Source: Candidatus Nomurabacteria bacterium (GTDB taxonomy: Bacteria > Patescibacteriota > Minisyncoccia > Phycocordibacterales > UBA5272). Taken from it: a DNA stretch of 64,000 nt. The stretch is from assembly GCA_040376695.1 (NCBI GenBank), contig JBEIQD010000001.1:217029-281028 (forward strand). Reading direction: 5' to 3'. Position numbers and translations under genes: made by a program. The notes beneath the pieces are model-generated. The model searched no databases and had not been told where the DNA came from. It saw only the letters and a list, made by a program, of their open reading frames with translations. Below, in pieces: positions 5,954-60,070 of the stretch (the stretch's first letter is position 1; every line of letters starts with the position of its first letter).

Positions 5954-5976
5954 AGTTTAAGTGTTGATTACGTAGC

Positions 5977-8900
5977 TTATAAAGATGATTCACCAAGTAT
6001 TGTCTCCCGCTCTGACTCGATCTTTCGTGGTCCAACATCAAGTGAAAGTCCTCGAAGTGTGTTCAACATCACAGTAAATGATGCAGGAGTATTTGGCTCC
6101 TTCACGTCTTCTCCCTTGATAATCGAATCAAACGCTGCAGAACGTCCTACGATATCGTCAGACTTAACTGTTAGCATTTCACGCAAAATGTGTGCTGCTC
6201 CGTAACCTTCGAGTGCCCATACTTCCATTTCCCCGAATCTCTGTCCTCCTCCCTGAGCCTTTCCACCAAGTGGCTGCTGCGTAATAAGAGAGTAAGGGCC
6301 GATTGAACGCATGTGAATCTTATCTTCAACCATATGGTGAAGTTTCATGATGTACATAACACCAACGGCAGTTTCCTGATTGAAAGCCTCACCCGTTCGT
6401 CCGTCGTAAAGTTGTACTGTTCCCTGTTCGTTGTATCCAGCCTTTACAAGCTCTTCCTTGATTTCAGTTTCAGTAGCTCCCTGGAATGAAGGCACAATAG
6501 CCTGGTATCCAAGCGCATCAGCTGCAAGACCAAGGTACATTTCAAGAATCTGTCCAAGGTTCATACGTGATGGCACACCAAGCGGCGTAAGCAAGATGTC
6601 GATAGGAGTTCCATCTTTATCAAATGGCATTTCTTCTACCGGAAGAATTGTTGAGATAACTCCCTTGTTACCGTGACGTCCAGCAAGCTTATCTCCAACA
6701 GAGATGTTACGGATCTGCGCAACCTCAATGTGAATACGCTTGATGATTCCACTTTCTAGCTGATCACCTCGTTCACGAGAGAATACCTTCACACCAATAA
6801 TACGTCCACGCTTTCCGTGATCTAGTCGAAGTGAAGAGTCCTTCACGTCGCGAACCTTTTCACCGAAGATAGAACGTAGAAGTCTCTCTTCTGGGGTAAG
6901 TTCAGTTTCTCCCTTTGGAGTGATCTTACCTACCAAAATATCTCCTGGACGAACTTCAGCTCCAATGCGGATGATTCCTTCTTCGTCAAGGTTCTTAAGC
7001 TTGTTTTCTCCAACGTTTGGAATGTCGTGTGTTGTTACTTCAGCTCCAAGCTTTGTATCACGAACGTTACATACGAATTCTTCGATGTGAATTGAAGAGA
7101 ACTTACTTTCACGAACAAGACGCTCTGAAAGAATGATGGCATCTTCATAGTTCGCACCGTTCCAACTCATGAACGCAACACGAATGTTGTGTCCAAGTGC
7201 GATCTGACCATTGTCAGATGTTGCAGCATCAGCAAGTACTTGTCCTTTCTTTACCTTTTCTCCAAGAGACACGATTGGTCGCTGGTGGAATAGGTTGAAA
7301 GCGTTTGTACGTGCGAAGTTGATAAGACTGTATTCATATTCCTTCTTTTCAGATTTGATGATTACTTTCTTTGCATCGACATACTTAACTTCACCTGCTT
7401 CGTCCGCCAAAATAAGACGTCCGATGTGCTTTGCAGCTTCTCCTTCCATACCAGTAGCAACAAATGGTGCTTCTGGAATCATAAGTGGAACTGCTTGTTT
7501 CTGCATGTTTGAACCCATGAGTGCGCGGGTTGCTTCATCGTGCTCGAGGAATGGAATCATAGATGTTGCAACTGAAAACGCTTGGTTTGTTGCTACGTCG
7601 ATGTACTCAACAGCTGATCGATCAACGAGTGCAGGCTGTCCCTGTACACGAGATTCAATCTGTTCGTTTACGAGTTTTCCGTCCTTGTCGTATTCATTTC
7701 CAGCATGTGCAATAATATGACGCTCTTCTTCAAGTGCGTTCATGTACACGATATCCTTTGTGATCTTTCCTTTCTCTACCTTAACGTATGGAGTTTCGAT
7801 AATACCGAAGTCGTTGATACGTGCGTAGTTTGAAAGACGTAGAATAAGACCAATGTTTGGACCTTCTGGAGTGTGGATTGGACACACGCGGCCATAGTGA
7901 GATGTGTGAACGTCACGAACTTCAAAACCTGCTCGTTCACGAGTAAGACCGCCGGGACCGAGGGCTGAAAGTGTACGAAGGTGCTCTACTTCTGCAAGCA
8001 AGTTTTCCTGGTTCATGAACTGAGAAAGCTGGTTTGTTGTAAAGAATTCCTTAATACGTGCCTGAAGTGGGCGCTGGTTGATGATAGCGATAGGAAGTGT
8101 TGTATCAGTATCGATAACAGACATCTTGTCCTGAATGTTTCGCTTCATCTGCATCATACCTGTACGAATCTTCTGTGCCATCATTTCTCCCACGTAACGA
8201 ACACGACGTGAACCGAGGTGGTCAATATCGTCTTCCTGCGCGTTTGGATTATTGTTGAGCTCAATCATGTGATTGATAATCTCAATCATGTCTTCCTTAG
8301 AAAGAGTACGGCGAGCTGCATCCTTATCAGTCTTTGGGTCAATTGGCTTACCGAAACGCTTGTTGAAACGAAAACGTCCAACTGGAGAGAGGTCATAGCG
8401 TTCTGGAGAGAGGATAGAGTCGATATGTTCCTTTGCGTTCTCAGGAGTTGCAAGGTCTCCATCACGAAGACGCTTGTAAATTTCGATGTATGCATCGTGA
8501 ATTGTCTTGATTTCATCACGTTCTACAAGAGCTGACATGAGAGGTCCCGCTACTTCGTGACCTTCAAAAGCCTTCTTGATCTGGTCATCTGTTGTAAGAC
8601 CAAGCACACGGAGGAGTGCAATAGCAGAAAACTTACGCTTCTTGTCGATACGTACGTAAATACCACCATCACTTTCAGTTCCAAGTTCAATCCAAACACC
8701 ACGTGAAGGAATGATCTTTGCACCGAAATACTTCTTACCTTTCGTTTCTTCAGAATCGAAGAAAACACCGAACGATCGGGCAAGCTGAGGAACCACTACA
8801 CGTTCAACACCGTTGATGATGAATGTTCCGTGAACAGTCATGAGCGGAAAATCAGCCATGAAAATCTCCTGTTCCTTAACAGTATTCAAGATTTTGTTTG

Positions 8901-9228
8901 TAAGCTTTACACGAGCGCGAAGTGGCGCTTCGTAGGTAAGCTTGTTTTCCTTAGCATACACTTCTTCGTACTTTGGTGCTGAAAGTTCAAAAGAAATGAA
9001 TTCAAGATCAAACTTCTTTTCTGAGTAGTCACGCAATGGTGAAAATTCACGAAAGATTTCTACAATTCCCTTTTCAGTAAGGTCCTTGTATGAAAGGATT
9101 TGGTTTTCGACGAGGTTAGGAAGTTTAGTAAGCGGTTCTCGATATTTCGAGAACACTTTTTGCGGGCGCACGGTTAAGTGTGATGATTTAGGCATAACGC
9201 AAATGTTGCCAAAGTGACTCTCTTTCAC
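5977..9228 (-). CDS. rpoB: DNA-directed RNA polymerase subunit beta
   Basis: 1083 aa; conserved beta-subunit blocks (GRHGNKGVIS, SALGPGGLTRERAGFEVRDVH etc.). Confidence 0.97.
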   Translation of the reverse strand: MKESHFGNICVMPKSSHLTVRPQKVFSKYREPLTKLPNLVENQILSYKDLTEKGIVEIFREFSPLRDYSEKKFDLEFISFELSAPKYEEVYAKENKLTYEAPLRARVKLTNKILNTVKEQEIFMADFPLMTVHGTFIINGVERVVVPQLARSFGVFFDSEETKGKKYFGAKIIPSRGVWIELGTESDGGIYVRIDKKRKFSAIALLRVLGLTTDDQIKKAFEGHEVAGPLMSALVERDEIKTIHDAYIEIYKRLRDGDLATPENAKEHIDSILSPERYDLSPVGRFRFNKRFGKPIDPKTDKDAARRTLSKEDMIEIINHMIELNNNPNAQEDDIDHLGSRRVRYVGEMMAQKIRTGMMQMKRNIQDKMSVIDTDTTLPIAIINQRPLQARIKEFFTTNQLSQFMNQENLLAEVEHLRTLSALGPGGLTRERAGFEVRDVHTSHYGRVCPIHTPEGPNIGLILRLSNYARINDFGIIETPYVKVEKGKITKDIVYMNALEEERHIIAHAGNEYDKDGKLVNEQIESRVQGQPALVDRSAVEYIDVATNQAFSVATSMIPFLEHDEATRALMGSNMQKQAVPLMIPEAPFVATGMEGEAAKHIGRLILADEAGEVKYVDAKKVIIKSEKKEYEYSLINFARTNAFNLFHQRPIVSLGEKVKKGQVLADAATSDNGQIALGHNIRVAFMSWNGANYEDAIILSERLVRESKFSSIHIEEFVCNVRDTKLGAEVTTHDIPNVGENKLKNLDEEGIIRIGAEVRPGDILVGKITPKGETELTPEERLLRSIFGEKVRDVKDSSLRLDHGKRGRIIGVKVFSRERGDQLESGIIKRIHIEVAQIRNISVGDKLAGRHGNKGVISTILPVEEMPFDKDGTPIDILLTPLGVPSRMNLGQILEMYLGLAADALGYQAIVPSFQGATETEIKEELVKAGYNEQGTVQLYDGRTGEAFNQETAVGVMYIMKLHHMVEDKIHMRSIGPYSLITQQPLGGKAQGGGQRFGEMEVWALEGYGAAHILREMLTVKSDDIVGRSAAFDSIIKGEDVKEPNTPASFTVMLNTLRGLSLDVGPRKIESERETILGESSL

Positions 9229-25664: not shown

Positions 25665-26294
25665 CTACTGTATCGCACTCTCAGAGGTACTAACAATCGC
25701 TCGTTCAATTGGATACGCGTACACAGAACCACATGAAGCAAACCCACGAGAAATAATCTGTCTGTAGGTAGGTGTTTTATTAACAAGTACAGTAGCGCAT
25801 CGATACTCCCCTCCACCTAAATCCATACGCATATTAAAGGTAGAAGTTTGCCCAGTGTCAGTATTCCCCGCAGAATCAATACGTGAAAAAGGGGTAATAG
25901 CATAGTTACTAACCGAACTATCGAAAATACTCGATGCAGCGCACTTTATGTCATTTAAGGAAAGAGAACTTAAACCACCCGCTACACGCTGTACGTTTAT
26001 TTTATCCAGCACCATTTGACTTGTTACTAGATTATTATATTGAAAGATACCAAGACCTGTTTCTTGATCGTAATACTGATCATCTATTGCCGTAGCACAC
26101 ATGAGTCCATTATCAGCAGCGTAGTAAGCAATTTGACTCAAGCGAGAGAGTCTAGAAAAATATAGCTCCTTACTAAGAATAATAGAGATGCTCGTAGCAA
26201 TAGTTAGAATAATAACGCACACAATAAGAGTCAGTGGGAGGACAAACCCCTTAGCACGTGTATCTATTATTTTCTTAAGAGTAAATAGTTTCAT
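25665..26294 (-). CDS. PilX-like pilus-assembly/minor pilin protein
   Basis: Hydrophobic N-terminal segment (KGFVLPLTLIVCVIILTIA) without the classic cleavage motif; last gene of the pilin sub-cluster. Confidence 0.45.
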   Translation of the reverse strand: MKLFTLKKIIDTRAKGFVLPLTLIVCVIILTIATSISIILSKELYFSRLSRLSQIAYYAADNGLMCATAIDDQYYDQETGLGIFQYNNLVTSQMVLDKINVQRVAGGLSSLSLNDIKCAASSIFDSSVSNYAITPFSRIDSAGNTDTGQTSTFNMRMDLGGGEYRCATVLVNKTPTYRQIISRGFASCGSVYAYPIERAIVSTSESAIQ

Positions 26295-26299
26295 GTTCG

Positions 26300-26950
26300 T
26301 TATGCTCGTGCGTGGAGAAAATCTACAATCTTAACCTGATGTAGATATCCGTTCTGACGCTTAAAGGTTATTGTAACCGTAACACGAAGATCGTCATTAT
26401 AATTTTGGTCTGGACCGGTAAATGTTGGTATTGAAGTAATAGACACAGCTCGACTAAAATTAGTTAATGTGTACCCTGGCCCGCTCCCGTGGGCTCCTGT
26501 ACAAACATAAATACTAGTTGCGTCTTCTAGAGAGAGGGTATTGCAACCTGCTTGATTACTTACATACTTCGTTGGATCAAAATCTTCATTAGCTGTCATA
26601 TCAATGAAATCATATGCACATCCCGTAGGGTTATCTACCTCGTAACATGACGCACCTTGAGCATTAGAAGCTAATCGTGCACGAAACACTCGCCAAGCCG
26701 CTTGAGCTGAAGTTTCTGCATTAATAGGTGTACATGCAGCTGTGGTGGATTGAATGCAGCGTATATACACAGAGTCTTGCTGGTGACGTAAAAGTTCTAT
26801 TGCCTCCTGTGCGAGATATGTTGCAATAAGAGTGTCCTTTGTAAGTCGTGCATACGTTGAAGCGTTCGATGCAACAGTAAGCGGACCAAGAATTACCATC
26901 GTAATGATCATTGTAGACACAAGTGTTTCAACAAGTGTAAAGCCGCGCAT
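26300..26950 (-). CDS. Type IV minor pilin (prepilin-type N-terminal cleavage/methylation domain)
   Basis: MRGFTLVETLVSTMIITMVIL: G/FTLVE class III signal. Confidence 0.75.
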   Translation of the reverse strand: MRGFTLVETLVSTMIITMVILGPLTVASNASTYARLTKDTLIATYLAQEAIELLRHQQDSVYIRCIQSTTAACTPINAETSAQAAWRVFRARLASNAQGASCYEVDNPTGCAYDFIDMTANEDFDPTKYVSNQAGCNTLSLEDATSIYVCTGAHGSGPGYTLTNFSRAVSITSIPTFTGPDQNYNDDLRVTVTITFKRQNGYLHQVKIVDFLHARA

Positions 26951-26995
26951 AGATCGTGCTTGTTTTTTGAAAAGGAAATTGAAAAATATCATAGG

Positions 26996-27634
26996 TTAAT
27001 TGTCTAGAGCACGAGATGATCCACTTGTTTGAACACTAAAGGTTACAGCGGGGATCGTCTTCTTTCTTGGAATTGTCACCCCTGATATAACCATAGTAAT
27101 AAGTGGCTGATTATTGTCAGAAGCGCCAGCATAGTCAGCTGTTCCGGTTGTACTATGTAATCCATCACCATAAAAAGAAAGTGTTGTTATATTCACATCA
27201 CTTGAGGTGATCTGAAATGTTCTCACTGTCCCACCATATGGATACTCATTTTTATATAAAATCCCATTTGAAAGATAATATGCCACGCGGTCGAGGTTAA
27301 GGTTTGTTGTACCGTTCAAAGCAACGGTTGGCCTAAAGATAAGCACAGTACCCCCACTTGGGTAGTCACATCCTTTTCTAAGAGTTGTCATAGGAGTTGG
27401 GATGGCAGTGTCACAATAAAAACGTGAACCATACCGTATGTCACGTATGATCACTTCTGTTGCCAAGTTTACTCCATCAAGAATAGATTGTGTTTGTTCT
27501 AGTCGAGTGTTTACGACCTGTGCTGAAAAAAGTGCCCCTGTGGCAATGGTCATAACACTAATAAAAATTGCCATCGTAACAAGTAGTTCGATAAGAGTAA
27601 ACCCGCGAAGTGAAGATTTGTTTCTGTGTATCAT
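26996..27634 (-). CDS. Type IV minor pilin (GspH/PilV-like)
   Basis: LRGFTLIELLVTMAIFISVM prepilin signal. Confidence 0.75.
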   Translation of the reverse strand: MIHRNKSSLRGFTLIELLVTMAIFISVMTIATGALFSAQVVNTRLEQTQSILDGVNLATEVIIRDIRYGSRFYCDTAIPTPMTTLRKGCDYPSGGTVLIFRPTVALNGTTNLNLDRVAYYLSNGILYKNEYPYGGTVRTFQITSSDVNITTLSFYGDGLHSTTGTADYAGASDNNQPLITMVISGVTIPRKKTIPAVTFSVQTSGSSRALDN

Positions 27635-28302
27635 GGTGTAAGGTTGTCGCATCTACCGATATCATTTCTAATCATACCTGAACTAAATATTTGAACATTT
27701 CTAATATGCCCTAATAGAGGAGCTCGTGGAGAAAAGAGTTCAATACACGCCGCTCCATAACTGGTCGTAGTTGCATTGTTAATATAAATTGAAGGTACTG
27801 GGTTTGGTCGAGTGAAAGACACCGTAAGAGATTCAACGGCTGGAACATTTGATTCATTGCAAGTAAAAGGAAAACCTGTTCCAACACAGAGCCTATTAAC
27901 AAAATACCTATCAGGAAGTTTTGTTGTTGTCTTTGTTTCATTGAAAGGAACACCGTCCTCAAAAAGACTATTTCCTATTGCAATACCATATGGCTTCGGA
28001 ATACTAGCATCTACTGTGTCACCAAAAAGAACAAGTTGAGTCGATGAGGCTAAAGATATATACACACCATACCCACCGAGAGAACTATTGATTGAATCAA
28101 TTGCGCTCCCTCGAACTTGAGCTTCACGAATGAGGAGTGAAGTTGTGTGGGAAACATTAGCAAGTGTTAATCGTACCGCTGTTTCTGGGTATTTACTCAA
28201 AAGAACCGCCGTGAGAGTAACAATAACTGCCATACTGATACTTAATTCAACAAGAGTAAAGCCGCGCAAAGGAAAAAATACTTTGGAGGATTTCATATTC
28301 AT
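27631..28302 (-). CDS. Type IV minor pilin
   Basis: PLRGFTLVELSISMAVIVTL prepilin signal. Confidence 0.75.
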   Translation of the reverse strand: MNMKSSKVFFPLRGFTLVELSISMAVIVTLTAVLLSKYPETAVRLTLANVSHTTSLLIREAQVRGSAIDSINSSLGGYGVYISLASSTQLVLFGDTVDASIPKPYGIAIGNSLFEDGVPFNETKTTTKLPDRYFVNRLCVGTGFPFTCNESNVPAVESLTVSFTRPNPVPSIYINNATTTSYGAACIELFSPRAPLLGHIRNVQIFSSGMIRNDIGRCDNLTP

Positions 28303-28311
28303 ATAGTACCA

Positions 28312-29085
28312 CTAAGCAAAGAGTGAAGCGATGGAAAAAATGCCTATATCTGTGAACAAAACAATAAGAAACGCAGCCACAATAAATGGCACAAAAGGAA
28401 TTGCTGTATTCGTATTATGTTTCTTCCTTCTTTGGAGGTAAACGATAATACCGACCACAGCCCCTAACCATACAGAAATGAGAAGCACCGCGAGACCTTG
28501 TTCAATTCCAAAAAAAGCGCCGACGGCTAAGTATAAAAGAACATCTCCAAAACCAAGAGCTCGGCCCTTTGTAACTAACCAGATAATAAGAAATGGGAGT
28601 GCTACTACAAGTGGACCTAATAAGACTTCCACCCCTCCATAATGAACATATCTAATACCCAACATTACAATAGAAAGAAATGAGAAGAGCCCGAGAAAAA
28701 CAACAGGTACATATGAATGCTTATAATCATATAACGCTATCACTCCCAAAGAAATAAGGATGAGGGTGTAGTAGAAAAGCCACCACATAGCAACAACAGG
28801 TGCTGAACCAGCCAACATAAAATGATAGACCATCATAAACACCACCCCAAAGCCGATTTCAATGATAAGTGTCTCTATTCCGTACGGGACTTTACAGTAC
28901 TTACACTTTCCTTTAAGGAAGAGATAGGAAAGTACTGGTACCAAATCTGAAATGCGAAGTGCCTCTCCGCAGGAGAGGCACTTGCTACGTGACTGTATGA
29001 TTGGGGCAACGTTAAGACGAGTAGCTACAACTTGAACAAAACTCCCTATCGCAGCACCGTATAAGAATGATAGAAAATAGAACAC
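28312..29085 (-). CDS. pilD: Prepilin peptidase (A24 family)
   Basis: Polytopic membrane protein with CxxC...CxxC (CLSCGE...CKYCK) between TM1 and TM2 and conserved Asp residues. Confidence 0.85.
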   Translation of the reverse strand: MFYFLSFLYGAAIGSFVQVVATRLNVAPIIQSRSKCLSCGEALRISDLVPVLSYLFLKGKCKYCKVPYGIETLIIEIGFGVVFMMVYHFMLAGSAPVVAMWWLFYYTLILISLGVIALYDYKHSYVPVVFLGLFSFLSIVMLGIRYVHYGGVEVLLGPLVVALPFLIIWLVTKGRALGFGDVLLYLAVGAFFGIEQGLAVLLISVWLGAVVGIIVYLQRRKKHNTNTAIPFVPFIVAAFLIVLFTDIGIFSIASLFA

Positions 29086-29094
29086 TACAAGAAA

Positions 29095-29742
29095 CTAGTT
29101 AGTAAGGTCGTAGATACAGTTCGTGAGTGCACCAGTACATGTTGTTAAACCAGTGTCTGCAGGACCATTACCGAAGTCAGCAGAAGCTGATCCAGCTGGG
29201 TTTCCAGCATCGCCTGAACCAAAGTTACTTCGTACAACGGTACAAGCACTTGATGATGTACATACAGGAACCGCTGCACCTGACGTCGCATCTCCCATAC
29301 ATGGACGAGGACTACTTCCTGAAGCGGTTTGAACACCTCCACAGTCAGCGTCATCGTTTAATCCCTGGTTTCCAGCCTCAAGCTTTACACCAATATGGTA
29401 TCCCATGTAATTAGCTGTTCCTGAATCGAGGAAAGCTGCGTACATGTATTTATCACGCCCAATAGTAGAAGTTGCTGCGTTTGAAGGCATGTTTGGAATA
29501 TAACGAGGAACTAGGTCTTCGATGGCGCCAGGATATGTTCCTCCGTGGTCGTCAGCGTAAATACCAATTGCTGTCACAATTGAACGAAGGTCTGCAATCT
29601 TTTTTGCATCTCGTCCCTTCTTACGAGCTTCAGTAATTGGAGCTGCGATAACAGTTGATAGGAGACCAATGATTGCGATAACAACGAGAAGTTCAATCAA
29701 CGTGAATCCTCTTAGACCCTTTTTTGTAAGTGTTTGTAGCAT
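29095..29742 (-). CDS. pilA: Type IVa major pilin candidate
   Basis: KKGLRGFTLIELLVVIAIIGLLSTVI class III signal. The C-terminal half is G/S/A/T-rich with six Cys, and the gene is GC-richer than its neighbours. Confidence 0.8.
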   Translation of the reverse strand: MLQTLTKKGLRGFTLIELLVVIAIIGLLSTVIAAPITEARKKGRDAKKIADLRSIVTAIGIYADDHGGTYPGAIEDLVPRYIPNMPSNAATSTIGRDKYMYAAFLDSGTANYMGYHIGVKLEAGNQGLNDDADCGGVQTASGSSPRPCMGDATSGAAVPVCTSSSACTVVRSNFGSGDAGNPAGSASADFGNGPADTGLTTCTGALTNCIYDLTN

Positions 29743-29840
29743 AATTTTTTTCTATCTTTGTAGATATCTTAAGTATAGTACCCTTCGTCTAAAGCGCAAG
29801 GAATACCGGTGCAAAAGTGAAGAATAGCTGTGGATAAAAG

Positions 29841-31046
29841 CTATGAAATAGAAGCAGAAAGTGAGTACATCGGAAGAAGCACAGATGACACAAGAACTCC
29901 AACACCCAAACCAAGACCTACAATCATAGCTGGTTCAATCAATCCAATAACATTATCGATAGCTGTGTCGAGCTCTCGTTTATAGAACGTAGCAAGGTTC
30001 TTGAGGATATATCCAAGCTCTCCTGTTTCTTCACCGATACGAACCATTTGCACAAGAATATTCGGAACGAGCGGCTCTTCGTATAAAGCCTTTGAAAAGG
30101 CAACTCCAGATTGTACTTTTGCTGATACTCGTTTAAGTAAATCTTTATATACCACGTTATCAACAACAGCTGAGGTGATATCGATAGATCTCACGATAGG
30201 AACTCCACTAGAAAGCATAGTATTCATATTGTCTGCAAGTCGTGTAAGGAAAATTCTTTGATAGAGATTTTTAAACACGGGAGTTTTTGTTTTAATCTCA
30301 TCCATCTTGCGTGTCCCTTCTTCTGTTTGTATCCATCGATAAAAAAGCCAACCTCCAATAATCATTACAGGAAACACAATAATCCAGTACTTTACGAATA
30401 TCTCAGAAGTTCCAAGTACAATTTTTGTAATCATTGGTAGTTCAGCTCCCTGATCCGCAAACATCGCTGCCATTTTTGGAATAACGAACACGAACATACC
30501 AACCATAATCACAATAAATGTCCCCACCACGAACATTGGATATGTAAGTGCCTTCTTTACCTTCTGACGCAATTCATAATCACGATCGAGATAATCAGCT
30601 AAGTACAAGAATGATTCATTAAGCTTTCCACTCTCTTCTCCAGCTTTCACCATGTTCACATAAAAAGGAGAGAATAGTTCTGGACGCTTAGAGAGCGCAT
30701 CAGAAAGAGAAACACCAGATTCAATATCATCCGCCACACCAGTAAGCTGCCGCTGAAGTTCTTTGTTATCATTCTCAGCAGCAAGTAGACGAAAAGCTTT
30801 TAAAGCTGACACTCCGGCTTCAAAGAGTGTTGCAATCTGTCGAGAGAAAATAACAACATCTTTTGGTTTAATCTTTGCCTTGAAGAAAGAGAAGTTGAGG
30901 TTTACATCTTTACTTTTGTCTTTAATACTTACAACGCTCAATCCTCGCTTTTGAAGAAGCACTATTGCTGCGTCCTGTGAAGAAGCTTCTATTTCAGCTT
31001 CTGTTTTTGTTCCCTCTTGATTAATTGCTGTGTAGTGAAAAATCAT
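29841..31046 (-). CDS. pilC: Type IV pilus platform protein PilC (GspF family)
   Basis: 401 aa; two GspF repeats and three TM blocks. Confidence 0.85.
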   Translation of the reverse strand: MIFHYTAINQEGTKTEAEIEASSQDAAIVLLQKRGLSVVSIKDKSKDVNLNFSFFKAKIKPKDVVIFSRQIATLFEAGVSALKAFRLLAAENDNKELQRQLTGVADDIESGVSLSDALSKRPELFSPFYVNMVKAGEESGKLNESFLYLADYLDRDYELRQKVKKALTYPMFVVGTFIVIMVGMFVFVIPKMAAMFADQGAELPMITKIVLGTSEIFVKYWIIVFPVMIIGGWLFYRWIQTEEGTRKMDEIKTKTPVFKNLYQRIFLTRLADNMNTMLSSGVPIVRSIDITSAVVDNVVYKDLLKRVSAKVQSGVAFSKALYEEPLVPNILVQMVRIGEETGELGYILKNLATFYKRELDTAIDNVIGLIEPAMIVGLGLGVGVLVSSVLLPMYSLSASIS

Positions 31047-31048
31047 AG

Positions 31049-32137
31049 TTATAGTAGACGTTCAAATATATTTGTTCGTCGAGCAAAAGACATGGCATCA
31101 TCTTTTGTTACATCTCCGCGACGAACAAGCTCAGCAAGATTACGATCAAGGTCTATCATGCCGTCTTGTGACCCAGTCTCGATAAGTACGTCAATTTCAT
31201 GCGTTCTTCGTTCTCGAATAAGATTTGATATTGCTGGTGTATTAAGAAGAAGTTCAAATGCAGGAATAAGTCCACCAGATACGCGTGGAACAAGGCGTTG
31301 TGAAAGAATACCAATAAGCGATGAAGCAAGCTGCAAACGAATCTGATCTTGCTGATCAGCTGGGAACGTATCAATAATACGATCAACAGTTTGTGCAGCT
31401 GAGTTTGCGTGAAGTGTTGAAAGTACGAGGTGTCCTGTTTCAGCAGCAGTAACTGCAGCCGAAATAGTTTCTTTATCTCGCATCTCACCAATCATAATTA
31501 CATCAGCATCCTGACGGAACACGTGTGTAAGGGCTGTGTGGAAATCTTTTGTATCAACACCAACTTCACGTTGCTCAATAAGAGACTTATCCTGATCAAA
31601 ACGAAATTCAATGGGGTCTTCAATGGTTACAATGTGACGCTTTGCTTCACTGTTAATGAGTCCTATCATAGAAGCAAGCGTCGTTGATTTACCTTGCCCA
31701 ACAGGTCCCACCACAAGAAAGAATCCTTGGCGTTCACGAGCAATCTGAATAATCTGTTCTGGTAAATTAAGTTCAGAAATACTTTTTACTTTAGTAACAA
31801 GACGAAGGGCGATAGAAATAACTCCACGCTGAAACGAGGCGTTCCCACGAAGTCGATATTCTTTTGCATATTCATATGAAAAATCGATTTCTTGATTTAC
31901 AACAAACGAAGTAAGTGCTTTTTCACCAACCATTACACGCAAAAATCCAAGCGTATCTTCTGCGGTAAGTTCTCGTTTACGAGTAAGTGGAATCAAATCA
32001 CGATTAACACGAAGTGTAGGAAAAGAACCCACTGTCATATGCAGATCAGACCCCCCTTCTTTTACCAGCGACATAATAAGGTCTGCGAGCTCCGTTTCGT
32101 AGTTCATAGTTGAAGTATAGCAGTGTATGTAAAGCAA
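31049..32137 (-). CDS. pilT: Twitching-motility retraction ATPase PilT
   Basis: 362 aa; Walker A GPVGQGKST, Asp box, Walker B and His box of PilT-class secretion ATPases. Confidence 0.85.
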   Translation of the reverse strand: MLYIHCYTSTMNYETELADLIMSLVKEGGSDLHMTVGSFPTLRVNRDLIPLTRKRELTAEDTLGFLRVMVGEKALTSFVVNQEIDFSYEYAKEYRLRGNASFQRGVISIALRLVTKVKSISELNLPEQIIQIARERQGFFLVVGPVGQGKSTTLASMIGLINSEAKRHIVTIEDPIEFRFDQDKSLIEQREVGVDTKDFHTALTHVFRQDADVIMIGEMRDKETISAAVTAAETGHLVLSTLHANSAAQTVDRIIDTFPADQQDQIRLQLASSLIGILSQRLVPRVSGGLIPAFELLLNTPAISNLIRERRTHEIDVLIETGSQDGMIDLDRNLAELVRRGDVTKDDAMSFARRTNIFERLL

Positions 32138-32173
32138 ACAATTGTATAACTCACAGAAAGTAGATTTCTATGA

Positions 32174-33919
32174 TTATAGTTCGTTAATTTCGGTAAATGG
32201 AATAAGTCCTTTGATTGACTTTATAATCGCATCTTCTTTCATCGTCATCATTCCATGAGAGCGAGCGAGCTTCCATATCTCTTCTTCGCCCTTACTATGA
32301 AGAACAGCCTCTTGAACATCGTCAGTGAATGTTAGCACCTCAAACACAGGAACACGTCCTTTCATTCCTGTTGGATGTGTTGCATCTGCCTTTGCTTGGT
32401 GAAGTGGTTTATCTAGTGGTAATAATTTTCTAAATTCTTCTGGCATATCCTTAAACTGCTCTTGAATCATTGTCCTCATGCTGTCATTCTCTGGAATCTC
32501 TTCTGCGCACCCTTCTGCAATTTGACGCGATAGACGCTGACCAATCGTTGCGATAATAGTTGGAGCAATAAGATATGGTTCAATACCCATATCCATAAGA
32601 CGCGTAACAACACCAATAGCTGTGTTGGTGTGAATTGTAGAGAACACCAAGTGACCAGTAAGAGCAGCCTGAATAGCAAGACCCGCAGTTTCCGCATCTC
32701 GAATTTCTCCCACCATGATTACGTCAGGATCTTGACGCAAAATAGAACGAAGACCTGAAGCAAACGTATAGCCAATTTCTGGGAACACCTGAGATTGGTT
32801 CATAGAAGGAACGTTATATTCAATTGGATCCTCAAGAGACACCACATTTCTGTGCTCACGATCCAGTTCGTTCAACATCGCGTACAGTGTTGTTGTTTTT
32901 CCAGATCCTGTTGGACCAGAAATCAAAATAATTCCATATGGACGAGCAAGCGCTTCACGAATTGCTGTCATCTGGCGCTCATCAAATCCAAGCGTATCCA
33001 CAGGGCGCACCCCCTTGTAACTATCAAGAATACGAATCACCACCTTTTCTCCATAGTACCCTGGGAATGTCGACACACGGTAGTCAATACTATGATCTCC
33101 TAATTTCGTACTAAAACGTCCGTCTTGAGGCTTTCGTTTTTCGTCAAGCTTAATTGAACAGAGAATCTTTACACGAGCAATAAGCATTGGATGCATCTTT
33201 ACCGGAAGAGTGGTGATAGTTTCAAGTCGCCCATCCAATCTTACACGAGCTCGCACAGCTGTGCCAATATGTTCAATGTGAATGTCAGATGCACCGTTAT
33301 CAATTGCATAGCGCAAAATAATACTAAACACTTCAGGAATAGTAAGTTTTGCAAGATCGTTATCTAAAATTTGTGATACGTCTGAAAGATCAATATCCTC
33401 TCCAAGGTTCTCAGCCCCCTTGTCAGGTTCATCTTTGGAAACATATGAAAGTTTCTCGTCACTAACTTTATCAGTAAGGGAAGCCTTTAAATCAGAGGGA
33501 CTGGCACTAAGTCCAAAATGTTTCTTGTAAGCATCGTATGAAATCAAATATACCTTATACGCTTGATGATCTGTACCGAAAAGGAATTGAAGACTATCCA
33601 ATACATTTCCATGTTCTGGATCCACAACTCCGACTAAAAGCACCCCTTCAACCATTTCTAGCGGTACTGCGAGGAATTGCTTTGACTGAACAACATTAAT
33701 ATAACGAGTGAGTTCTTTATCTTCCGCGATTTCCTTCCCGTAAATAGGAAGTCCATACAGCACGGATCGCACCTGCATAATGTCTTCCCCTGTGATTTGT
33801 TTTGCTTTTAGTAAATCATCAACGAGAACATCGTCACGCACCGAAATATCAGACTCAATGTCCTTTGCTTCAAGTTCTGTTAACTTATTTTGACTAACGA
33901 AGAGGTCGAGTAGAAGCAT
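32174..33919 (-). CDS. pilB: Type IV pilus assembly ATPase PilB (GspE family)
   Basis: 581 aa; N-terminal GSPII_E_N-like domain and Walker A GPTGSGKTTTL. Confidence 0.9.
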   Translation of the reverse strand: MLLLDLFVSQNKLTELEAKDIESDISVRDDVLVDDLLKAKQITGEDIMQVRSVLYGLPIYGKEIAEDKELTRYINVVQSKQFLAVPLEMVEGVLLVGVVDPEHGNVLDSLQFLFGTDHQAYKVYLISYDAYKKHFGLSASPSDLKASLTDKVSDEKLSYVSKDEPDKGAENLGEDIDLSDVSQILDNDLAKLTIPEVFSIILRYAIDNGASDIHIEHIGTAVRARVRLDGRLETITTLPVKMHPMLIARVKILCSIKLDEKRKPQDGRFSTKLGDHSIDYRVSTFPGYYGEKVVIRILDSYKGVRPVDTLGFDERQMTAIREALARPYGIILISGPTGSGKTTTLYAMLNELDREHRNVVSLEDPIEYNVPSMNQSQVFPEIGYTFASGLRSILRQDPDVIMVGEIRDAETAGLAIQAALTGHLVFSTIHTNTAIGVVTRLMDMGIEPYLIAPTIIATIGQRLSRQIAEGCAEEIPENDSMRTMIQEQFKDMPEEFRKLLPLDKPLHQAKADATHPTGMKGRVPVFEVLTFTDDVQEAVLHSKGEEEIWKLARSHGMMTMKEDAIIKSIKGLIPFTEINEL

Positions 33920-34226
33920 ATGGTACGAACGGGTCTACGCGACCACGTGTATCGTTAGTTGAGATGGTTTCTGAAAAGTCACGGAGCTGTCGCACAAGCG
34001 CAGAGTCCATGAAGTTCGCATCTGTGAATGAAATACGATCCTGATTTACGACTTTAAGGAAAAGTACAAAATTCTGTCCGAGTAATTGCTCGTTGATTTT
34101 AGTTTCAGAAACAGACGCTGAACCTTCGCTGAAACTTGTATACAGATAATATGCTCCAAATAGGAAAAGGAGGAGAATTGCTGCTTCGATGATAACTGTT
34201 TTCTTTTGTACGAAAAATGATTGCAT
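33894..34226 (-). CDS. Small membrane-anchored protein inside the pilus operon (possibly a PilP-like accessory)
   Basis: 110 aa with an N-terminal TM; sits between pilO and pilB and overlaps the pilB start by 26 nt. Confidence 0.4.
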   Translation of the reverse strand: MQSFFVQKKTVIIEAAILLLFLFGAYYLYTSFSEGSASVSETKINEQLLGQNFVLFLKVVNQDRISFTDANFMDSALVRQLRDFSETISTNDTRGRVDPFVPYASTRPLR

Positions 34227-34235
34227 ATACGTGAA

Positions 34236-34787
34236 TTATTTTATGAAGTAGGTCTCAAGCTTTACCTGGTATGAAGTAGGATCACTCTCACGCTCAGGGG
34301 CTGCAAAGTTCACTGTTTGTATTGAGAAAAGTCGCAAACTCTTTTCAAATGTATCCATAAGAACCTTAAATTGTGGGTATGTTGTCTTAACAGTAAATGA
34401 AATACCTGCCGATCCACGACCGTTCGTTGTTGATGGGCCGTCTGAGTATGCAAGTTCATTAAATGGAATTCCTGCTTCTACAGAAATATTATACACCTCA
34501 CTAAGTAGTCTCACTTTATCAATACTGTCAGGCACCATCACTTTCATTTTAGCTTTCTGTTCATCGGTAACACGAGAATACTGTGAGCGAAGTGTTTCTG
34601 CTTGCGTGAAAAGATTATCCGCTTGATTGAGGGTCTCATCATACTGACTCTTTAGTTCTCGAAGTGACTGGACACTTTCTGTTGGCTGCCACACACCACC
34701 CACACCCTTATAGAGTGGACCGATCAATAGATAATACACTGCGAATGTTCCAACGATGAGCAATAAGTTAAGGAGATTTTTTGACAT
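34236..34787 (-). CDS. PilO-like pilus assembly protein
   Basis: N-terminal TM plus coiled coil; positioned after PilN. Confidence 0.55.
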   Translation of the reverse strand: MSKNLLNLLLIVGTFAVYYLLIGPLYKGVGGVWQPTESVQSLRELKSQYDETLNQADNLFTQAETLRSQYSRVTDEQKAKMKVMVPDSIDKVRLLSEVYNISVEAGIPFNELAYSDGPSTTNGRGSAGISFTVKTTYPQFKVLMDTFEKSLRLFSIQTVNFAAPERESDPTSYQVKLETYFIK

Positions 34788-34794
34788 AGTGGTA

Positions 34795-35589
34795 TTACCT
34801 TCTTGGTGAGGTAGTTGTTCCAGTAGAAGTTCCTGTTACTGGCGTTGTTGTACCTGTAGTAGGAAGTATCGGCATAGTTGATGAACTTGTACCCATGATT
34901 GGAGACGTTGAAGCAACTCGCGCGGCTGCACCATCTGAAAGATTAATACCTTCAGGAAGAAGCCCTGCGATCAAGATAGGCATCTTAAGAGTAAACCCGA
35001 TATTTCCTGTTTCGTTAGGCTGCAACCCTTCAACGACAATATCCTGTATGTATGTTGTGTATGGCTTACGCTTAAGTGTGTCCACTTGTTGAGCAATGCT
35101 CTTATAGTTAGGAGCAACACCGCCAAGCTGAAGAGCGTACCCTTTTGTCTGCGGGTTATATCGCAATTCAAAACGTTCATAAGTCACCTGATTTTCAATA
35201 CTGTCTTCAACAATACGGAATGCAACGTTTGCTGATGGGTGCTCTTTAACCAACTGATTAATTATTTTAATCCGATTAGAGAGTTTACGCATGTCTTCAA
35301 GTGGAAGCGTTGCGAGACGTGATTCATAGTCCGCAAGTAATGCTTTCTTGGCATCAATTTGAGATGAGAGGTAATACTGATACCCAAAAAGTCCTACAGC
35401 AATTAATACCGCAGCACCAAAGACTGCCATCAAAACAAGCTGAACTAGTGATTTACCATGCTCCCCTTCTCGTGCCATAAGACTCGATACTGCTGTTCCA
35501 CCAAAAGAAGCCGCAGGAGTAGGTACAGGTAACGGAGCGTCTCCGTTTGGTGTGGTTTGTGATATCTCTGGTTTAAATGAAAACGGCAT
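34795..35589 (-). CDS. PilN-like pilus assembly protein with a Thr/Ser/Gly-rich C-terminal tail
   Basis: Single TM after a short cytoplasmic N-terminus; positioned after PilM. Confidence 0.5.
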   Translation of the reverse strand: MPFSFKPEISQTTPNGDAPLPVPTPAASFGGTAVSSLMAREGEHGKSLVQLVLMAVFGAAVLIAVGLFGYQYYLSSQIDAKKALLADYESRLATLPLEDMRKLSNRIKIINQLVKEHPSANVAFRIVEDSIENQVTYERFELRYNPQTKGYALQLGGVAPNYKSIAQQVDTLKRKPYTTYIQDIVVEGLQPNETGNIGFTLKMPILIAGLLPEGINLSDGAAARVASTSPIMGTSSSTMPILPTTGTTTPVTGTSTGTTTSPRR

Positions 35590-35609
35590 ACGTGAGGTGG
35601 TGGTGAATC

Positions 35610-36692
35610 TTAGGGAATTAATTTCTTAAGCGCGCATCCAACAGCTACAGAGTATGATGGACCGATTCGCTCAATCATCTCATGAAGAAATGGCGGCACA
35701 TCTACCTGTTCAAATGGTGTCGCAATTCTCCCTGGAATATGTACCGTCTCATTATATGATTCGATTACCCCCGGGAGACGAGCTCCGCCACCTGATAAAA
35801 TTATCCCTTCAATAGTTTGATTATACTTTCTTTCGTACATAAGAGATAGACGTGCGACCTCTCCAAACAGTGGATAACTAGAAAGCTGCATCACATCTTT
35901 CACGTAAGGATTGGTTGCGTCTCCTTTATATCCAAATGTTCGCTTTGTTTCTTCTGCGGTATCAATTGGAATTGAAAGTGCTTTCGATAATTGAATAGTT
36001 CCGTCTTGTGAACCTCGACTTATTACATGCATGTCGAGCACGGTATTGTTATGAATAAGAGAAAGCGTCGTGTATTGTGCACCAATATCTACATAAAGAA
36101 CCATTCCCGCACTTTTCGGAGACACACTACGCATCATAGAATACCCCTGAATCTCATATTCAACATTTGTCAGAGAAAGTTTCTTAATAACACGATCGTA
36201 CATCGTAAGCGTCTCATTTTTCACCGCAGCCAATACCACGTTGATCATACGTTCGTTTGCACCAATGTTTACCGTTGTAGGAATGTGCCACCAATCCATC
36301 TGTACTTCTGATAATGGTATCGGAATATACTTACGGGCCTCAAATGGCATCATGCTACGAAGTTCGTTATCATCCACCTTAGGAACTTTTACAAGCGATA
36401 CGAATGCAGCGGACGAATCAATAGAAACAACAGCATCTCGCGCAGTAATTTTTGCTTCCTTAATAACATCTTGTATCGCTTCAACAAGTTTTTCTTCACC
36501 CAAGTGAACTGCCTGTCCTGCAACCATGCCACCGTATGGACCAAGTGCTATCTCACCGTAGGTGTCGAGAATAATTTTTTCTTTCTCACGACGAAGTTGC
36601 ACAACCTTAACGGAAGCACTTCCAATATCAAGTCCAATTGCTTGACCAACGTCTTCTTTTTTAAAGATGTTGAACATATACGTAGTATACAC
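35610..36692 (-). CDS. pilM: Type IV pilus assembly ATPase-fold protein PilM
   Basis: Actin-like fold motifs GLDIGSASVKVV and ILSGGGA. Confidence 0.8.
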   Translation of the reverse strand: MYTTYMFNIFKKEDVGQAIGLDIGSASVKVVQLRREKEKIILDTYGEIALGPYGGMVAGQAVHLGEEKLVEAIQDVIKEAKITARDAVVSIDSSAAFVSLVKVPKVDDNELRSMMPFEARKYIPIPLSEVQMDWWHIPTTVNIGANERMINVVLAAVKNETLTMYDRVIKKLSLTNVEYEIQGYSMMRSVSPKSAGMVLYVDIGAQYTTLSLIHNNTVLDMHVISRGSQDGTIQLSKALSIPIDTAEETKRTFGYKGDATNPYVKDVMQLSSYPLFGEVARLSLMYERKYNQTIEGIILSGGGARLPGVIESYNETVHIPGRIATPFEQVDVPPFLHEMIERIGPSYSVAVGCALKKLIP

Positions 36693-42269: not shown

Positions 42270-42649
42270 ATAAATTAGCTTTTAGTGTGATTAATGTGAT
42301 TTGTGCCTCCTGACTGATATCGTACCAAATAAACAGAAGTAAAGTCAAGTATTTGTGCAATAACTTCTATGTGTTTTATAAAACTGTTATTTATCAAGTA
42401 CTTTATGATAGTTATCCACACAGAAATTACTGATTAGAAATGGAATATAATACCTATTAGGCCATTGGTCGAATGCAGAATATGCAAACCTTCTAGCCTT
42501 ATGGTAAAAGCGCGTTGGGATTATGAAAATCTTAACCAGGAGCAGGTCTTTAGAGCATCGGAGCGCGTAGAAGAACATAGCGTAAAAATACCCAGCAATG
42601 AAGCTGGATATTTTAGGACAGTGAGTCGTACCGATACCTAATTATTGTG

Positions 42650-42736
42650 CGGAGAATGTGAGATTCGAACTCACGGACCTAATAAAAGGTCGACGGTTTA
42701 GTAAACCGTTGGTTTAAACCACTCACCCAATTCTCC
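42650..42736 (-). tRNA. Type-II (long variable arm) Ser-like tRNA whose anticodon reads ACT under the canonical fold (unusual)
   Basis: Minus-strand sequence ggagaat...acggt-ttactaa-accgt...gtgag-ttcgaat-ctcac-attctcc-g: 7-bp acceptor, long variable arm, discriminator G (Ser identity), anticodon loop TTACTAA. Confidence 0.6.
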
Positions 42737-42751
42737 ATATTGTTTTCTGTG

Positions 42752-42838
42752 CGGAGACGAGAGGATTCGAACCTCCGAGGGATTTAACTCCCTGCCTCTT
42801 TAGCAAAGAGGTACGTTAGACCACTCTGACACGTCTCC
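42752..42838 (-). tRNA. tRNA-Ser (GCT)
   Basis: Minus-strand ggagacg...cctct-ttgctaa-agagg, long variable arm cagggagttaaatccctcg, T-arm gaggttcgaatcctc, acceptor cgtctcc, discriminator G. Confidence 0.85.
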
Positions 42839-42994
42839 TAACGCCTTGTAAACTATGGTGTACCAAGTTTCCAAGTGATTTCTATACTACCATATTGAGG
42901 GTCTCTTCGCATCTGTAAAAACTGCACCAAAATGCGGAAAGTAGCCTCATTGGCCTGTCTGAAATATACTGTACTCTTATACGTCATACATTAT

Positions 42995-44930: not shown

Positions 44931-45002
44931 GGCCCTATCGTCTATCGGTTAGGACGTATCCTTCTCAAGGATAAAAGCAGAGTTCGACTCTCTGTAGGGT
45001 CA
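44931..45002 (+). tRNA. tRNA-Glu (CTC)
   Basis: Acceptor ggcccta/tagggtc, D-arm gtct...ggac, anticodon arm tatcc-ttctcaa-ggata, T-arm cagag-ttcgact-ctctg. Confidence 0.8.
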
Positions 45003-45003
45003 C

Positions 45004-59756: not shown

Positions 59757-59787
59757 AAACACCGCCCTTGTGGGACGGTGTTTTCAT
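59757..59787 (-). terminator. Intrinsic terminator directly after the rnpB 3' end
   Basis: Minus strand aaaacaccgtcccacaagggcggtgttttc. Confidence 0.55.
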
Positions 59788-59789
59788 GT

Positions 59790-60070
59790 ATTCTTTGTCT
59801 ATAAGCCGAATTCTGTGTTTGTGTAGACATGTATCTAGGATGATAGTCACCCATCACCTCAAGCGACGCTCCTTTCAATTGCTCAAAAGGCACGGTCTTG
59901 CACACACGTATGTATTTAGCCGTTTCAGCCGAACTAAATCGGATCGTTTCTGTTCGCAACACGGTGGTCACCCACGACGGGCATTACCCGCTACGCTTAT
60001 CATGTAAACATGATGATGTGTTCGGACTTTCCTCACGATATTGCTATCGCGCGTCTACCCAACAAAGAAC
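59790..60070 (-). ncRNA. rnpB: RNase P RNA (M1 RNA), compact about 280-nt form; not in the ORF track
   Basis: Minus strand carries the universal 5' block cgtGAGGAAAGTCCGaac (plus 60020..60037) and the 3' block ACAGAAttCGGCTTAtag (plus 59799..59816). P1 pairing gttctttgt/acaaagaa (60062..60070 vs 59791..59798). Internal GGGTAATGCC and TGAAAGGAGCG blocks. An upstream TATACA-18-TAGTAT promoter-like sequence and a terminator hairpin right after. Confidence 0.78.

Follow-up and report, generated by a model that had tools for sequence, protein, structure and literature searches.

A conserved tRNA-Ser gene with the anticodon ACU in Paceibacterota, probably an accessory isoacceptor for the serine codon AGU

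We identified a tRNA-Ser gene whose anticodon reads ACU, beside a canonical tRNA-Ser(GCU), in a 64,000-nucleotide stretch of a Candidatus Nomurabacteria genome (contig JBEIQD010000001.1, positions 217,029 to 281,028 of the forward strand; hereafter the window). The gene is real, is conserved in other Paceibacterota and is under selection for its structure. It probably encodes an accessory serine isoacceptor dedicated to AGU that has long been conserved in Paceibacterota and is associated with a shift in usage from AGC to AGU. The gene pair has the following parts, given in the order of transcription, with the GCU gene at the 5' side and the ACU gene at the 3' side.

42752 to 42838, minus strand: tRNA-Ser(GCU), the first of the two genes and the canonical decoder of AGY (ARAGORN; Rfam, 44.4 bits)
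42737 to 42751, minus strand: 15-nt spacer between both tRNAs, CACAGAAAACAATAT (sequence)
42650 to 42736, minus strand: tRNA-Ser(ACU) (ARAGORN; Rfam, 56.7 bits; 16 distinct orthologous sequences with covariation)
42700 to 42702, minus strand: anticodon A34-C35-U36 of the ACU gene, with A34 at 42702; the stretch spanning position 34 is GGTTTACTAAACC

Both genes encode class II tRNAs of 87 nt (G1 to discriminator G73) with long variable arms, and the CCA end is unencoded in both. ARAGORN called tRNA-Ser(gct) at 42751-42838 and tRNA-Ser(act) at 42649-42736, each on the minus strand, and both genes scored above the gathering score of 29 for the Rfam tRNA family RF00005, with the full model (1-71) matched by the ACU gene. 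The ACU tRNA has an acceptor stem of 7 bp, a D stem of 3 bp, an anticodon stem of 5 bp (ACGGU/ACCGU), a variable arm with a 5-bp stem and a 6-nt loop, the T arm GUGAG-UUCGAAU-CUCAC, and G73 as its discriminator. The anticodon loop reads TTGCTAA in the GCU gene and TTACTAA (UUACUAA in RNA) in the ACU gene, and the two genes are 64% identical. The first-pass annotation of the window had described two 87-nt class II genes 15 nt apart on the minus strand, with G73 and the anticodons GCU and ACU, and on this ARAGORN, Rfam and the sequence agree; the ARAGORN run that it proposed also returned its clean Ser-type fold with an ACU anticodon. Two details required correction, as the GCU gene, which it placed downstream, is upstream in the direction of transcription, and the first base of the anticodon, which it placed at 42698, is at plus-strand position 42702.

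We searched a genome collection with the D stem and anticodon stem of the ACU gene fixed and the anticodon left free (NNN). Among the 120 matches listed, 116 had GCT and were tRNA-Ser(GCU) genes of other phyla with an identical arm, and 2 had ACT, both in metagenome-assembled genomes (MAGs) of Paceibacterota/Nomurabacteria representing at least 2 species (GTDB). None of the listed matches from other phyla had A34, and A34 is therefore not background noise. Two matches reading ACA were discarded, being another tRNA on the opposite strand that reads as Thr(UGU). Position 34 aside, the D arm and anticodon arm of the ACU gene are those of many tRNA-Ser(GCU) genes of other phyla, including Sphingomonadales, Bacteroidota, Ignavibacteria, and others. 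When metagenomes were scanned with a clade-specific D-loop and position 34 left as N, all 21 matches had A34. Further, a copy found via a PilM protein anchor alone (L148) also reads ACU, with a D stem differing from the DNA search patterns. There are 25 other Paceibacterota instances from genomes and metagenomes, comprising with the window 16 distinct sequences of equal length in which A34 is invariant. With 26 instances, window included, the gene is retained clade-wide, though patchily, and the comparison of orthologous loci suggested by the first-pass annotation thus found it conserved in other Paceibacterota.

Covariation was analyzed in the first 15 of these sequences, in which 99.2% of the stem cells are paired, with 3/375 cells unpaired, two of them in L125. 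Changes on both sides were identified in 8/25 pairs, in acceptor pairs 5-7, the variable arm (3/5 pairs), and the T stem. The covariation score exceeded that of every one of 500 shuffles, and pairing fell to 25-50% when the register was slid. The L148 copy has A:U in place of a G:C pair in the D stem, a fourth stem with a compensatory change, and the anticodon stem, which was fixed by the search pattern, is without variation. Invariant across the 16 sequences are the anticodon loop UUACUAA, G73 (G87), acceptor pairs 1-4 (pairs 5-7 vary), and the tertiary nucleotides T8, A14, the D-loop GG (G18G19), and the T-loop TTCGAAT. The serine identity set of E. coli tRNA-Ser comprises the discriminator G73 and the acceptor pairs G2:C71 and A3:U70, all of which are present in the ACU tRNA and invariant in the 16 sequences. 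On every feature that can be tested in sequence, the predicted product is a tRNA and, more specifically, a tRNA-Ser. As a separate observation, one metagenome contig of 51.8 kb (Ga0209515_10000893) carries the same tRNA-Ser(ACU) twice (L129 4254-4341 and L135 7496-7585), with different flanks and with CCA encoded in one copy and not in the other.

The window genome is cellular, with SecA, a Mur ligase, RpoB/C, a sigma factor, and a type IV pilus operon, and its nearest SecA homologues are named Candidatus Paceibacterota or Nomurabacteria, so that the host is a bacterium of the Candidate Phyla Radiation (CPR)/Patescibacteria. In the ACU-bearing loci, orthologous proteins are 45-77% identical to those of the window, and the ACU tRNA is found time and again at a distance of a few kb from this type IV pilus operon, the MscL gene, or both. 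In 13 loci, window included, the ACU gene has a tRNA-Ser(GCU) no more than ~2 kb away, in tandem or divergent orientation, and the spacer in relatives ranges from 15 nt to ~1.8 kb. The tRNA-Ser(GCU) of the window is 100% identical to that of the relative L148. The type IV pilus cluster was syntenic in all relatives examined and served as an anchor for unbiased sampling, with loci chosen by PilM similarity only. The syntenic site in these loci is a variable serine-tRNA cluster, as follows.

25665-36692, minus strand: complete type IV pilus cluster of the window, with PilM, PilO, PilB- and PilT-type ATPases, PilC, and downstream ORFs with pilin-like N-termini
Window: GCU and ACU
L148 (PilM 78% identity): GCU, CGA and ACU
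L152/L153 (PilM 87%) and L154 (PilM 80%): GCU and CGA
L146 (PilM 89%): lone GCU, with a near-identical upstream block
L147, L149 and L150/151: region without tRNA

The syntenic site is without the ACU gene in three closer relatives (L146, L152/153, and L154), and this absence, together with the deep spread of the gene, shows that it is old but dispensable; vertical inheritance with repeated loss is the simplest history. Synteny was also kept in loci anchored on SecA, but these ended ~0.5 kb before the tRNA site. An exact look-up of the 222-aa ORF adjoining the tRNA pair found nothing on record.

The AGN box of this genome is standard and split, with AGU and AGC coding for Ser and AGA and AGG for Arg. 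In SecA, AGA stands at Arg positions invariant in 115 homologues, including R119 of the AEMRTGEGKT motif, and AGT stands at an invariant Ser. Reassignment of AGA to Ser was considered and rejected, given AGA at the invariant Arg of SecA and its use without avoidance in ACU-positive genomes. AGT exceeds AGC ~2.6-2.9-fold in the window (192:67 and 198:75 in two ORF sets), and in RpoB and RpoC together the ratio is 11:0, against a U:C ratio of 152:261 in the control two-fold boxes (p=2e-5).

We compared codon usage at orthologous positions with Ser-AGY in both genomes, using the other two-fold Y-ending boxes as control. Sites with AGT in the window and AGC in the relative outnumbered the converse for each of the three relatives lacking ACU (22:4, 17:1, and 9:2), whereas the control boxes gave 217:277, 140:113, and 64:104 (Fisher 6e-5, 8e-4, and 8e-3). 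Between the window and ACU-positive relatives, AGY switches were 1:1, with AGT in both at most sites, and L148, used as a second ACU-positive reference, showed the same direction (15:4 pooled). The initial control pooled six two-fold boxes, and after a per-box breakdown the usage was re-normalized to both box classes; with AGY normalized to two-fold or four-fold boxes, 12 ACU-positive loci differed from 3 ACU-negative loci with a Mann-Whitney p=0.009. At conserved Arg sites, AGA was favored in the window over the three relatives lacking ACU (27:14, 12:9, and 8:2). The AGY box behaves like a box with a good U-reader, and the codon data, which are correlative, match the prediction for a translationally active AGU decoder, not for a silent gene or a costly misreader of AGA. 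We regard the codon-usage evidence as supportive, not decisive. As an observation on another box, in rpoC and rpoB (window 2351-9228) Cys is encoded by TGT and TGC at 13:1, whereas Asn, His, Tyr, and Phe favor C, and the TGY box has also moved towards U relative to the relatives (21:7).

In the mechanism that we propose, seryl-tRNA synthetase (SerRS), which ignores the anticodon, would charge the ACU tRNA with serine through its long variable arm, G73, and G1-C72/G2-C71/A3-U70/G4-C69. The charged tRNA would decode AGU by a Watson-Crick A34:U3 pair and would thereby supplement the GCU tRNA, for which AGC is the Watson-Crick partner and AGU is readable only through a G:U wobble pair. The gene probably originated anciently in Paceibacterota by a G34-to-A change in a canonical gene of the tRNA-Ser(GCU) type, after which it would have been inherited near the same type IV pilus/MscL neighborhood and lost repeatedly. 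Where the gene is present, selection for AGC would be relaxed and AGU would become the main AGY codon. Serylation and AGU-specific decoding are thus predicted features, and on balance we favor an unmodified A34; what this and the less probable inosine leave over would fall to other modifications or an unknown state.

Several points weigh against an accessory AGU decoder of this kind. Two ACU-positive loci, L141 and L144, are without AGU preference. According to the per-box breakdown, U has replaced C in the window lineage in most four-fold boxes and in the Cys box, whereas the Asn, Asp, His, Tyr, and Phe boxes show no such move, and part of the AGY shift is therefore a general drop in the GC content of third codon positions (GC3). 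The link with codon usage is a correlation in small samples that are phylogenetically non-independent, and "ACU-negative" denotes a locus with no ACU gene within ~10 kb of the syntenic site, not genome-wide absence. Because the sequence of the D arm and anticodon stem was kept constant in the DNA scans, these parts carry no covariation information and the breadth of the family is underestimated. For the expression of the tRNA, its charging, and the chemical state of its A34, we rely on inference from sequence. Further, an engineered Phe-tRNA(AAA), which belongs to a two-fold box, was found as IAA in E. coli (bioRxiv 10.64898/2026.05.15.725136), and the specificity of the deaminase is therefore not absolute.

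This last point bears on the alternative that A34 is deaminated by TadA or a relative, giving a tRNA-Ser(ICU) that would read AGU and AGC well and AGA weakly, with some Arg-to-Ser ambiguity. Since I34 tRNAs also favor U-ending codons, for example CGU for ICG, the AGU bias does not discriminate A34 from I34. Nearly all known genomically encoded A34 tRNAs become I34, and A34 co-occurs with TadA/ADAT (PMC8007984). We nevertheless consider deamination unlikely in the present tRNA. TadA-dependent editing in E. coli is tied to the UACG motif (PMC13170351), whereas the loop here reads U33-A34-C35-U36, with U at position 36. An orthogonal tRNA with the anticodon ACU read AGU at 9.4% in E. coli, with AGC and AGA below detection (PMC11066159), which shows that it was not deaminated there. 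AGA encodes invariant Arg residues and is used as much or more in ACU-positive genomes, with no sign of selection against misreading, so that the suggestion in the first-pass annotation of a mistranslating tRNA, reading AGA as ICU, finds no backing in codon usage or in the loop. Neither an H/CAE...PCxxC deaminase motif nor a tRNA-Arg(ACG) was identified in the 64-kb window or in ~275 kb of related Paceibacterota loci, which are not whole genomes. The single match to the deaminase motif, in L004, was an out-of-frame artefact.

Genes for tRNA-Ser(ACU) were also identified in phages. A scan of IMG/VR for the ACU anticodon arm found seven contigs (L155-L161) with four tRNA-Ser(ACU) bodies, located inside tRNA arrays, and the three contigs in which ORFs were scanned (L156, L157, and L161) had matches to families of phage proteins. 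Among the products encoded on L157 and L161 are a head maturation protease, virion structural proteins, a DNA ligase, a UvsX-like recombinase, and a gp32-type single-stranded DNA-binding protein. BLAST against GenBank phages identified tRNA-Ser(ACU) in Salmonella phages 7t3, Munch, SE_PL, and PHA46, Klebsiella phage fENko-Kae01, and Erwinia phage Hallingskeid, with identical copies in Munch, SE_PL, PHA46, and fENko-Kae01. The ACU tRNA of these cultured ~350-kb jumbo phages of Enterobacteriaceae has the loop CUACUAA, A73, and an encoded CCA. Their records label it only as "tRNA-Ser" where it is annotated, the PHA46 site is unannotated, and the fENko-Kae01 paper gives "Ser, Ser" and not the anticodons. 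In the sister jumbo phages RaK2 and BF17, the corresponding site carries GCU. Examples of the phage genes are located as follows.

L161, 9217-9306: tRNA-Ser(ACU) on an IMG/VR contig
L156, 12041-12127: tRNA-Ser(ACU) on an IMG/VR contig
L157, 10996-11085: tRNA-Ser(ACU) on an IMG/VR contig
L163, 301-391: tRNA-Ser(ACU) of Erwinia phage Hallingskeid (PQ464590)
L164, 301-391: tRNA-Ser(ACU) of Salmonella phage 7t3 (MK773491)

The gene may not be ancestral in Paceibacterota and may have been spread among them by phages, an alternative that concerns its origin and not its function. We see this as improbable. The seven phage contigs share the anticodon arm, the L155/L158/L161 body has the D-loop core GAGTGGTTTAAA as in Paceibacterota (D-loop GGTTTAAA) and is 75-82% identical to the Paceibacterota genes compared, and the distribution among close relatives is patchy. 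However, the position near the pilus operon/MscL is conserved across deep divergence, the window copy has no flanking phage genes, and a comparison of the window with GenBank phages gave no match. Identity between the ACU tRNAs of phages and those of cells is 70-82%, so that they resemble one another no more than they resemble ordinary GCU tRNAs of other phyla (72-81%), although an identity matrix over 87 nt is too coarse to resolve a common origin. As a side observation, Pseudomonas phage inbricus (MG018928 68163-68253; L170 301-391) encodes a class II tRNA with a long variable arm, G73, a Ser-like body, and the anticodon UCU, annotated as tRNA-Arg and 75% identical to the phage Ser(ACU) query, and Achromobacter phage Axy13 was also matched by BLAST. 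If charged by SerRS, the inbricus tRNA would insert Ser at AGA.

A stronger version of misreading holds that ICU conversion, or "superwobbling" by an unmodified A34, lets Paceibacterota and phages tolerate or exploit low-level Ser at the Arg codons AGA/AGG. We give this little credence; if true, it would be natural, conserved ambiguous decoding in a split box beside a complete standard decoder set. We consider it still more doubtful that the tRNA, once serylated, serves a purpose other than translation on the ribosome, as a Ser donor for cell wall or lipid or as a regulatory or primer RNA, with an anticodon free to drift. Dedicated non-proteinogenic tRNA isoacceptors occur in Gram-positive cell-wall synthesis, and a Mur ligase and peptidoglycan-binding proteins are encoded within a few kb of the gene. 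However, neighboring genes differ between loci, and the loop UUACUAA is invariant in 16 sequences while the stems vary, which is not drift. Non-proteinogenic tRNAs carry changes that evade EF-Tu, whereas the T arm, G18G19, and T-loop are canonical here, without such changes, and the association with AGU/AGC usage would be unexpected. No evidence pointed to either the regulatory or the primer role raised in the first-pass annotation.

The least credible alternative, a neutral or decaying GCU duplicate (pseudo-tRNA) or an assembly or sequencing error or minor polymorphism, draws on the facts that two-fold-box tRNA(ANN) genes are sporadic in GtRNAdb and usually seen as mutations or prediction errors (bioRxiv 10.64898/2026.05.15.725136) and that the syntenic site lacks the gene in three relatives, but the first-pass suggestions of this kind fail, as far as sequence can tell, against the recurrence of A34 in 25 further assemblies that are independent in sample and pipeline (21/21 where the base was free; no error or G/A polymorphism), compensatory substitutions in the acceptor, variable, and T stems and, with L148, the D stem, together with an Rfam score above that of the neighbor (no pseudo-tRNA), and 64% identity to that neighbor with retention in genomes of only ~45% protein identity (no recently mutated duplicate).

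The 15-nt spacer implies co-transcription and processing from a single precursor, and the ACU and GCU tRNAs are probably co-transcribed. The two flanking elements are as follows.

42584 to 42607, no strand assigned: terminator-like hairpin CCAGC-ttcatt-GCTGG, then a T-run on the minus strand (a terminator scan lists the hairpin at 42592-42607; the minus-strand reading is CCAGCTTCATTGCTGGGTATTTTT)
42867 to 42895, minus strand: upstream block ATATGGTAGTATAGAAATCACTTGGAAAC with the extended -10-like TGGTAGTAT (by likeness to L146)

The hairpin lies ~42 nt downstream of the ACU tRNA and probably marks the end of the two-tRNA transcript. In the upstream block, 26/29 bases are the same as in the sequence preceding the lone tRNA-Ser(GCU) at the syntenic site of L146, which makes the block a possible candidate promoter of the pair; a scan for the sigma-70 consensus called no minus-strand promoter upstream of the tRNA pair. 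The syntenic tRNA-Ser(GCU) itself occurs in at least 2 body types, the L146 gene (6282-6369) and the window gene (42752-42838) being 75% identical, and differing GCU bodies behind a near-identical upstream block suggest replacement of the tRNA gene at a fixed promoter. The body type of the partner GCU tRNA had no consistent link with the presence of ACU in the loci compared.

Elsewhere in the window are six further, scattered tRNAs and a compact RNase P RNA. The latter is of class A (59786-60070, minus strand, 285 nt), matches the 367-position model end to end with 115.7 bits, and is markedly reduced. A tRNA-Glu(CUC) at 44931-45003 (plus strand) was also identified in L002, L004, L134, L136, L152, and L154 and is conserved in the clade, although the great majority of bacteria are described as lacking CNN anticodons in the Asp/Glu box (PMC8007984).

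It has reportedly been regarded as a near-universal rule, ever since the wobble paper of Crick (1966), that split boxes lack A34. The first-pass annotation was right that A34 outside tRNA-Arg(ACG) is very unusual in bacteria, and a 2021 survey described A34 in the Ser-Arg box as "universally missing", with the same genes lacking in phages (PMC8007984). A 2026 preprint, in which all ANN tRNAs were built in E. coli, restates the survey's view, describes natural two-fold-box cases as only sporadic, and names the four-fold-box Leu(AAG) and Thr(AGU) as the only ones retained at the level of lineages (bioRxiv 10.64898/2026.05.15.725136). Neither ACU nor A34 is mentioned in the main text of a 2026 study that covered the tRNA genes of 95 complete Patescibacteria genomes, and our targeted searches of the literature turned up no report of a bacterial tRNA-Ser(ACU) that occurs naturally. 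The ACU gene breaks a rule that the current literature presents as universal. A split-box A34 tRNA under structural selection across a deep clade would mean that a "forbidden" anticodon is stably usable in nature, and the gene provides a natural setting in which to ask why split-box A34 is normally avoided. The presence of the ACU anticodon in cultured Salmonella and Klebsiella jumbo phages makes the state of A34 and the misreading of AGA directly measurable with existing strains.

Among known tRNAs, the ACU gene resembles the canonical tRNA-Ser(GCU) (E. coli serV type) in being class II, with a long variable arm, G73, A37 after U36, and the AGY box. It differs in having A34 for G, and it coexists with a GCU gene to which it is only distantly similar, at the identity given above. 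With tRNA-Arg(ACG), the substrate of TadA, it shares an encoded A34 followed by C35, and the loop of E. coli tRNA-Arg2 differs mainly at positions 32 and 36. In contrast, tRNA-Arg(ACG) belongs to a four-fold box, is universally deaminated, and has UACG, whereas the ACU gene belongs to the split Ser/Arg box and has U36, and inosine in it would misread AGA. The Leu(AAG) of Lactobacillales and the Thr(AGU) of Mollicutes/Leuconostocaceae are likewise ANN tRNAs retained in AT-rich genomes favoring U-ending codons. They serve four-fold boxes and replace the GNN isoacceptor, whereas the ACU gene serves a split box and accompanies the GNN tRNA.

The same anticodon has been engineered in E. coli, in the preprint of Raval et al. 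(2026) and in the M. jannaschii orthogonal tRNA of Schmitt et al. (2024). These artificial or heterologous tRNAs showed AGU-specific reading and neutral-to-beneficial fitness, and overexpressed Ser-tRNA(ACU) improved the growth of E. coli (bioRxiv 10.64898/2026.05.15.725136), whereas the present gene is natural and conserved, in a CPR bacterium. The phage tRNA-Ser(ACU) genes are, like the cellular ones, of the class II Ser type with the anticodon stem ACGGU/ACCGU. Unlike them, they have other bodies (70-82% identity), A73 in the 7t3 group, and an encoded CCA, and they are located in tRNA arrays.

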